Shown here one piece after another: positions 61,648 to 62,321 of a stretch of 64,000 nucleotides of DNA. A program made the position numbers and the translations under genes. The stretch comes from Escherichia phage SholemSchwarzbard, in the sequence record PP925840.1, one strand, 5' to 3'. Position 1 is the first letter of the stretch. Each line of letters opens with the position of its first letter. Below the pieces are notes generated by a model, which saw nothing but the letters and a program-made list of their open reading frames with translations, did no database searches and had not been told where the DNA came from.

Positions 61648-62243
61648 TGCATTCCAATCACAAAAAATTGAGGACGAACTGTTTCACCTGTTTCAGCATT
61701 ATAGCTTCGACAACAGTGTTGCACAGTTTCAATATGAATATCGTAAATTTTATCCATATCAGGAGATTTAACAGGCTCATCAATTATATACAAAATTCGT
61801 GAAAGCGATAAACCTCTGAACTTGCTACCTCTATTACCAATAAAACTGCGCACAGAATCAGTAAATAAACGAAAACGTATATCATCATTAGAATAACGCG
61901 AAAATTCCTTTTTAATGTTATTTGCAGAAATTTTAGCGTAAGCTGAAGTATTAGATAGAACAATAACTGTTCCGCCATCATACAGCCAATTAGCAGCAAA
62001 GTTAGTCACAGCAAGTGATTTACCGGATTGACGTCCACCATCTATACGAAGTGTACAGTACTGTTTAAGTAATTCTTCAAATGGCGGGATATATTCGTTT
62101 TTACAAATTTCTTCTACTCTAGCATCAGAATGGTGTGTAAAAGCATTCATCAGGGATAGATACGGGCCAGTTAAAAATGTTTTCATATTTTCTCTCTTAA
62201 TTTTTGGGCCATTCCATGGCACATGAGTTGTCCATTCCTGCAT
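61644..62243 (-). CDS. P-loop NTPase-like hypothetical protein, 180-199 aa
   Basis: Walker-A-like GGRQSGKS and hydrophobic-D-E YIIDEP; alternative start at 62186. Confidence 0.6.
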   Translation of the reverse strand: MQEWTTHVPWNGPKIKRENMKTFLTGPYLSLMNAFTHHSDARVEEICKNEYIPPFEELLKQYCTLRIDGGRQSGKSLAVTNFAANWLYDGGTVIVLSNTSAYAKISANNIKKEFSRYSNDDIRFRLFTDSVRSFIGNRGSKFRGLSLSRILYIIDEPVKSPDMDKIYDIHIETVQHCCRSYNAETGETVRPQFFVIGMQ

Positions 62244-62321
62244 TACCCATTACCGCGCTTTGGCTCGACCTTATCACAGGTTGGCGGGAATACCTCAAAT
62301 GAGGTCCAGGCTGTTCCCATA

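Follow-up and report, generated by a model that had tools for sequence, protein, structure and literature searches.

A predicted pseudoknotted RNA domain in the G+C-rich island upstream of vs.8 in a T-even phage, shared with unrelated phages

What is specified by the G+C-rich island that precedes the vs.8 gene of Escherichia phage SholemSchwarzbard (sequence record PP925840.1)? The window analyzed here is a stretch of 64,000 nucleotides (nt) from this T-even phage (Tequatrovirus), for which the nearest record is Ge15 (98% identity). The first-pass annotation had described a non-coding island of about 135 bp at the expected position of denV (endonuclease V), and had offered a deletion scar, a structured RNA and a target of recombination or of nucleases as possible explanations. 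Its location and composition were confirmed. The island (62321-62187, minus strand) fills the space between the stop of an internal-protein gene (62322) and the start of vs.8 (62186), and its G+C content is 0.474 as against 0.345 for the whole window, a value at the 99.6th percentile of 135-nt windows that is reached by just 8 separate regions in 64 kb.

Among these proposals, the structured RNA was strongly supported, both by covariation and by conservation across phage families. The island appears to contain two things, a mobile RNA domain and a vs.8-specific leader. The domain is best described as a phage-restricted, horizontally shared and pseudoknotted RNA under strong purifying selection. 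Its conservation, its fold (by covariation), non-coding status, restriction to phages, tRNA-array context and independence of denV are demonstrated below.

Covariation of the junction core and of the helices around it

Relatives of the element were collected by pattern scans of IMG/VR and metagenomes and then with a covariance model (CM), giving about 100 loci (cited below by L numbers) with 59 distinct cores, on which the core statistics are based. In the window, the core matched by covariance model R1 is located at 62242-62288 on the minus strand, with a score of 64 bits (E = 3e-21), the sole match in 64 kb on both strands. T4 scored 67.7 bits and other members 29-72 bits, as compared with noise that did not exceed 13 bits when 0.53 Mb of phage DNA was scanned. 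In gene sense, the core is predicted to form a three-way junction, in which the 5' strand of helix P1 (GCCA, 62285-62282) is followed by P2 (A-CCU[GUGAUA]AGG-U, 62281-62268), P3 (CGAGC[CAAA]GCGCG, 62267-62254), the joining strand J3/1 (GUAAU, 62253-62249) and the 3' strand of P1 (GGGU, 62248-62245). The core consensus is (A)CCUGURANAAGG-U-CNAGC-NNNN-GYGCG-GUAA.

P1 is formed by 4-5 nt directly 5' of the core and 4-5 nt after GUAA(N), and closes P2 and P3. Four to five pair types were found per position: pair 6-43 is CG in 36 cores, GC in 9, UA in 8 and AU in 4, and pair 5-44 is CG in 43 and GC in 14. P2 is near-invariant, and its outer pair is AU in 56 and GC in 3 cores, representing three switches from A-U to G-C. 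P3 carries a hypervariable tetraloop, an alternation of G-C and G-U (pair 25-32 is GU in 35 and GC in 17 cores) and a near-constant A facing G. Invariant features are the P2 loop GURANA and the joining strand GUAA. The covariation of the core was 0.229 as against 0.101 for shuffled alignments, a level reached by none of 500 shuffles, and sliding of the 3' partners reduced pairing from 84% to 19-41%. Across all covariation tests the values were 0.20-0.24 versus 0.09-0.10 in controls, with 84-94% pairing versus 19-45% after sliding. Compensatory pairs beyond both shuffled and slid controls, the generic mark of a structured RNA, were therefore present. Because G-U pairs become A-C mismatches on the opposite strand, just the gene-sense transcript would fold. 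The proposed recombination or nuclease target, acting at the DNA level, gained no support; such strand-specific G-U pairs suit the gene-sense transcript alone.

Two additional helices, a/a' and b/b', are predicted to cross each other in an H-type pseudoknot wrapped around the junction. Along the RNA come a, b, a variable hairpin, a', P1-P2-P3-P1', a linker and b', in this order. In the window the whole domain, from a to b', covers about 82 nt (62237-62318, minus strand; G+C 0.549 or 55%, at the 99.98th percentile). Helix a is composed of GGGAA (62314-62318) and UUCCC (62286-62290), and helix b of CCUG (62307-62310) and CAGG (62237-62240). The variable insert hairpin, ACCUC-AUUU-GAGGU, corresponds to the palindrome ACCTCAAATGAGGT (62292-62305).

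The pseudoknot statistics were taken from alignment A3, consisting of 25 distinct T4-like sequences outside Tequatrovirus, and the topology of the window domain was transferred from this alignment by homology. In this alignment 94.3% of the cells were paired (85.3% after shuffling), 8 pairs had changed on both sides, covariation was 0.243 versus 0.087 for shuffled alignments, and slid controls were 22-45% paired. Helix a/a' occurs there as AAAGG/CCUUU, AAAGC/GCUUU and AAAGA/UCUUU, and its pair 10-57 is GC in 12, CG in 11 and AU in 1 of the sequences. Helix b/b' of class A/A2 occurs as CCGA/UCGG, ACACG/UGUGU, CCUG/CAGG, CUCGA/UCGAG and CCAG/UUGG, with pair 16-112 being CG in 14, AU in 5, UA in 5 and GC in 1; when the partners were permuted, none of 2000 permutations reached the observed complementarity. 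Helices P1, a/a' and b/b' are each supported by covariation.

Within Tequatrovirus, helix a/a' is GGGAA/UUCCC, with GGGAG/CUCCC in L059 and GGGAAU/AUUCCC in L036 and L103. The insert hairpin varies in length and shows a compensatory change in L104, from CCUCAU/AUGAGG to CCUUAU/AUAAGG; in Vequintavirinae and class A it is exchanged for other hairpins. Inspection suggested corresponding helices in Vequintavirinae (GGGG/CCCC and GCCAG/CUGGU) and in the Pseudomonas-phage class (UGAGUG/CACUCA and CGGA/UCCG), the latter being enclosed by GUUGUGAC/GUCACAAC and UGCUCUUA/UAAGAGCA. The pseudoknot topology in Tequatrovirus, Vequintavirinae and the Pseudomonas-phage class is a reading by inspection and not a statistic. 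A scan of the flanks for the best helix found some enclosing long-range helix in most lineages, and was too noisy to serve as a test. The CCC of a' was also considered as the 5' strand of P1, and was dropped because it clashes with a/a' and lies in a different register across all classes.

Distribution and genomic setting of the domain

The core of about 40 nt was 91-95% identical in unrelated records (BLAST, 33-40% of the query), in which the flanks differ and their complementarity is kept. These carriers include Phage 203, bov10K2, EdH4 and MaxTheCat of the Vequintavirinae and the 151-kb Pseudomonas phage PsgM04F, and a 137-kb record designated as a plasmid, the one match in an otherwise negative BLAST search of plasmids, matches the Vequintavirus-type core. 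In one genome each from 185,579 bacterial and archaeal species, the strict core pattern gave 0 matches and the relaxed pattern gave just weak CM scores (25.8 bits or less), and no match to the island was found by BLAST in E. coli genomes.

The element was also compared with known RNA families. No match was obtained in the window at the gathering score of Rfam 15; near the island, a search allowing E values up to 10 gave just weak, spurious matches to small nucleolar RNA and MS2 families, all lying outside the core. For nine loci of four classes (E up to 0.1), Rfam 15 identified transfer RNAs (tRNAs) beside the element and nothing on it. ARAGORN found 0 tRNA or transfer-messenger RNA (tmRNA) genes in the window, and the element is apparently not a tRNA, tmRNA or tRNA-like gene. 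In the searchable literature, which did not cover motif catalogues outside Rfam, no paper was found on the core sequence or on a T4 small RNA at this locus. Several short resemblances were rejected: those to RNase P J11/12 (GGUAAGAG), the 530 loop of 16S ribosomal RNA (rRNA) (GCGGUAAU), the 16S 3' end (GUAACAAGGU), 5S rRNA, Y RNA and H69 have 8-10 nt in common with the element and no CM support, and the chance expectation for rRNA matches of 8-10 nt is about 0.7 by estimate.

In T4-like phages the element is usually located in the vs.8 leader, except that it precedes an internal-protein (ip) gene in KPV15 and PKO111 and another gene in the L039 type. In at least eight non-T4 lineages it lies within or beside co-oriented tRNA arrays, with tRNA genes within about 40-1000 nt. 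Homologues of vs.8 were detected in 1010 phage records; among the matches listed, all are T4-like myoviruses of about 165-186 kb, and no sign of vs.8 was found outside the T4-likes. A link to vs.8 or to terminase as the general function of the element was rejected on the same ground. Some copies have the appearance of stand-alone units. In L135 consensus scans identified a promoter-like site before the element and a site resembling an intrinsic terminator after it, the latter being about 45 nt beyond the domain and not overlapping it. In Phage 203 (L003) two promoter-like sites flank the core, and in L121 a terminator-like hairpin was seen by eye after the element.

Several features of individual loci were recorded in parallel. 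Tandem copies about 70-110 nt apart are present in L014 (5093-5250), L055 (9021-9179), L115 (363-521) and L129 (830-961); the second copy shows a re-registered P3 (C-A-G-Y-C [CGC] G-R-C-G), with a change from C-G to U-A between L055 and L014. The element is located directly downstream of an open reading frame (ORF) for a GH24-type lysozyme in the uncultured phages L135 (1890-2486) and L136 (8598-9190), and the T4-like element also lies within about 1-1.5 kb downstream of e. In L128 (1660-4114) and L134 (5189-7788) it is upstream of the genes for the small and large terminase subunits; the ORFs of these four loci were assigned by eye. The repeat CCCYUAGAGGGCUUGAWAGUGC of Vequintavirinae flanks the element in L003 (1420-1460) and L063 (about 60-100 and 190-230), and in the L063 type it stands both 5' and 3' of the core. 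Contigs of class D (L017 at 1700-2340, L045, L095, L116, L122 and L131) carry consecutive different RNA modules framed by the same long-range helix pair (AGUGCUCUUAUCGUUGUG... and ...CACAAC..UAAGAGCAUU). One module of L017 (2211-2330) looks tRNA- or tmRNA-like (CCGGUUCGACUCCGG...CCACCA), and another stretch of that contig (1737-1844) gave a weak match to permuted tmRNA (E = 0.097).

Coding potential, denV and the vs.8 leader

The possibility that the island codes for protein, either as an N-terminal extension of Vs.8 or in the form of a small peptide (MGTAWTSFEVFPPTCDKVEPKRGNG, 62320-62243), has existing annotation on its side. The window ORF can be extended in frame to an ATG at 62243, giving 199 amino acids (aa), and Ge15 is annotated in this way. 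In the T4 RefSeq record NC_000866.4 the vs.8 coding sequence is placed at 64253-64912 (L138, 1754-2413, minus strand; 219 aa), starting 26 nt past denV; its 40 extra N-terminal codons (MRDSRQPVIRSS...) translate the element, the T4 core (64856-64902) falling inside the annotated gene. The long model is also found in one T4 clone record, while PP01 and VR7 carry a short model with an MK or MR start. The relatives argue against translation. Among 39 distinct relatives the motif GGAAUGGCCC occurs in frames 0, 1 and 2 relative to the vs.8 start and 14-22 nt from its ATG, with insertions and deletions that are not multiples of three, and many relatives carry an in-frame stop 0-4 codons before the MK/MR start. 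Over the conserved nucleotides the reading frame of T4 differs from that of the window, the ATG of the small peptide is missing in T4, and the core is conserved in phages without vs.8. The first-pass annotation had considered that the island might prove to be a coding N-terminus with the 62243 start conserved in homologues; this comparison was negative, neither that start nor the upstream in-frame extension being conserved among vs.8 relatives. From the varying frame, the spacing of 14-22 nt and the nearby stops, the island is concluded to be non-coding, and a coding role is very improbable. The vs.8 start of the T4 RefSeq record is probably mis-set, and the true start in the window would be the ATG at 62186-62184.

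The first-pass annotation was correct that no denV-like ORF exists here: a tblastn search of the whole window with DenV of Ge15 gave a best E-value of 1.4 and no match near the island. The proposed deletion scar did not stand. Among T-even phages this region is a known hot spot where gene content varies, and denV, which is missing from the window, is placed differently among the relatives. It adjoins the element in T4, Cronus and the L014 type; in Ge15 it sits between e and the first ip gene, and VR7 has it upstream of ip10. The homologous stretch of T4, however, is 142 nt long, 83% identical to the island, and located directly downstream of intact denV, between denV and vs.8. Since T4 has both, and since the element is carried irrespective of denV by more than 900 records (918 phage records matched the 135-nt island by BLAST), the element is independent of denV. 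By comparison with Ge15, the real denV insertion or deletion in the window lineage appears to be at about 63130-63217, just after a common sequence resembling an early promoter, and not at the island. An inert scar, or debris derived from the host or from recombination, was excluded by the compensatory changes, the strong purifying selection, the conservation across families and the lack of similarity to DenV or to E. coli DNA, so that its probability is practically negligible. A true junction has a different look: in Mosigvirus G2469 (L032, 1180-1260) the early-promoter-like sequence with a denV-type leader (ttacttggagg) is fused straight to GGTAAATACAG... of the element, which looks like a deletion of the RNA core and, presumably, of denV.

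Between the domain and vs.8, the island contains a leader module, AAUGGAC...GUGCCAUGGAAUGGCCC (62206-62236, minus strand), with the putative hairpin GCCAU-GGA-AUGGC, or GCCATTCCATGGC (62208-62220). Both palindromes singled out in the first pass, this one and that of the insert hairpin, are therefore real. T4-like phages conserve the module (...AUGGAC...GYGCCAWGGAAUGGCCC) at a distance of 14-22 nt upstream of the vs.8 ATG. It is kept without the core in G2469, at a second site of KPV15 and in L093 and L109, which suggests that the module is separate from the domain and linked to vs.8. Its stem shows no compensatory changes, and the structure is putative. The loop displays GGA (GCCA-WGGAA-UGGC), and more GGA motifs are present 20-25 nt upstream (CAGGAAUGGAC). 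The GGA hairpin may resemble CsrA/RsmA binding sites as given by the consensus from systematic evolution of ligands by exponential enrichment (SELEX).

The element of the window is embedded in a polycistronic unit, as is that of T4. All genes of this unit are on the minus strand: the lysozyme gene e (63712-63218), the first ip gene (63129-62812), the second ip gene (62795-62322), the stop codon of which abuts the RNA element, vs.8 (62186-61644), vs.7 (61647-61318) and vs.6 or grcA (61310-60948). The second ip gene belongs to PHROG 3155 (internal virion protein, E = 6e-102) and to Pfam DUF7412. The vs.8 product (180 aa, MKTFLTGPYL...), a P-loop protein resembling terminase ATPases, belongs to PHROG 1488 (E = 9e-79), and the terminase large subunit was matched weakly (E = 1.2e-05). 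The gap separating e from the first ip gene holds a sequence resembling T4 early promoters (TTTACT, 17 nt, TG-n-TAGTAT; 63184-63212, minus strand), which was read from the sequence and is below the threshold of the scanner. The same sequence stands before denV in Ge15 and, in PKO111 and G2469, before the element or its 3' module; the one in the window is the likely source of the element-carrying transcript. In PKO111 (L034, 1120-1420) this promoter-like sequence is directly upstream of a second, chimeric copy, in which P1 is unpaired.

Two other observations concern the window. The vs.6 gene encodes a glycyl-radical cofactor of GrcA/YfiD type, for which T4 and Ge15 carry the annotation GrcA; its last 60 or so residues presumably match E. 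coli GrcA, and its C-terminal region (60939-61148) is among the eight most G+C-rich spots of the window. Six other 135-nt stretches equal or exceed the island in G+C content (3865-4021, 19544-19740, 33458-33631, 34764-34929, 44318-44508 and 52681-52877).

Alternative explanations and significance

On balance, we consider it fairly probable that the element is an autonomous RNA, probably processed, through whose invariant junction surface a conserved partner would be bound. The minus strand of the island, in gene sense, would template a self-contained structured non-coding RNA (62318-62237), in which P1 closes P2 and P3 and the crossing helices a/a' and b/b' surround the junction. In the window it would be transcribed within the early ip-ip-vs.8 message and be followed by the vs.8-specific leader hairpin. 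The partner of the junction surface may be a protein, encoded by either host or phage, or else a second RNA or a small ligand, and action in trans, processing and stability of the module are predicted features of this model. An autonomous RNA is suggested because the downstream genes are diverse, some copies form stand-alone units, enclosing helices are present, and the element habitually resides in tRNA islands. For the same RNA, we think that it is not a regulator dedicated to vs.8.

A number of observations weigh against this interpretation. The shuffle controls ignore phylogeny, and with P2 and most of P3 near-invariant the pairing depends on few compensatory events; at position 23 of P3, G, U and A all occur with no compensating change. 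The folding energy of the single sequence is ordinary on either strand (z = -0.6 and -0.75), and the signal is therefore comparative and not thermodynamic. Helix b/b' has just 4 bp in the window and 3 in T4 (CUG/CAG), for which reason it is assigned in the window by homology, and the relative L057 weakens a/a'. The scan for promoters and terminators gave no match adjoining the island in the window, and the T4 copy likewise has no promoter or terminator of its own, so that a purely cis role could apply in these two phages. The locus is unmentioned in a T4 omics paper, and the core is missing in some phages such as Mosigvirus G2469, which do without it, indicating that it is not essential.

A cis role would take the form of a riboswitch-like sensor, in which an aptamer sensing a metabolite, an ion or a protein controls the translation or stability of the downstream cistron via the leader hairpin. 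The architecture is aptamer-like, with an invariant junction, variable peripheral helices and a pseudoknot, and the tandem copies of L014, L055, L115 and L129 would fit such a sensor, as would the position in the vs.8 5' leader of most T4-likes and directly after an early-type promoter in PKO111. Against it, the downstream genes are unrelated (vs.8, internal proteins, tRNAs, terminase, or nothing before a terminator), and the leader hairpin of vs.8 persists where the core is missing. By inspection, neither the expression platform nor the related downstream genes of a riboswitch were found: no alternative pairing with a terminator or a Shine-Dalgarno sequence was seen, and the terminator of L135 does not overlap the domain. 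We regard this sensor as rather unlikely. An element for RNA processing or stability, either a self-cleaving ribozyme or a nuclease-resistant knot that cuts or insulates polycistronic or tRNA-array transcripts, would agree with the intercistronic location and the positions within tRNA arrays or at their edges, and with a three-way junction that is compact, pseudoknotted and similar in size to ribozymes, with an invariant core. Phage genomes commonly contain small self-cleaving ribozymes. No Rfam 15 ribozyme, however, matched the element (E up to 10; up to 0.1 across the nine loci), and no cleavage site could be assigned; we consider this alternative distinctly unlikely. More speculatively, and with doubt, the autonomous RNA might represent a new functional RNA class shared horizontally by unrelated virulent phages, serving as a ligand- or protein-sensing aptamer, a ribozyme, or a decoy or sponge directed either at an anti-phage nuclease or at a conserved host factor involved in translation or in the metabolism of RNA, and overlooked in T4 because it is translated in the annotation.

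The element shares its general design with the THF-I riboswitch, hammerhead and twister, which are compact pseudoknotted junctions with invariant unpaired nucleotides and variable helix tips. The likeness extends to occasional tandem copies. Unlike those riboswitches and ribozymes, the element has no Rfam match, no expression platform and no consistent regulated gene. Another comparison is with the ROOL and GOLLD RNAs, whose function is unknown and which are "often near tRNA islands" (PMC12286853). Like them, the element is phage-encoded, pseudoknotted and non-coding, and outside the T4-likes it too is found near tRNA genes. In contrast to ROOL and GOLLD, which are RNAs of phages and prophages with 500-800 nt or more, it has a domain of about 80-190 nt, does not match their Rfam models, and is present in virulent coliphages including T4. 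T4 itself produces small stable RNAs, rnaC and rnaD (species 1 and 2), together with its tRNA cluster about 6 kb from the element on the same strand. They differ from the element: with filters off, R1 gave at best 8 bits in the T4 tRNA region and the motif was not found there, and by eye rnaC and rnaD are tRNA-like with T-arm-like ends. The searchable literature contained no report of the element as a stable RNA species.

T4 has been thoroughly annotated, yet in its record a conserved RNA fold is given as 40 codons of a hypothetical protein. The correction of the vs.8 gene model is relevant because Vs.8, a terminase-ATPase-like protein, is reported in a 2026 preprint to be toxic on co-expression with the immune sensor Avs2 and has been proposed as an Avs2 activator (bioRxiv 10.64898/2026.04.30.721860). 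In rV5-like phages, a Pseudomonas phage and several uncultured lineages the junction retains a sequence identity of about 90% or more and resides with tRNA genes, a habit that is the same as that of ROOL and GOLLD. The element is also a candidate family for RNA databases. Phages of T4 and T2 type together with E. coli may thereby offer a small, genetically tractable model for the phage RNAs linked to tRNA islands.

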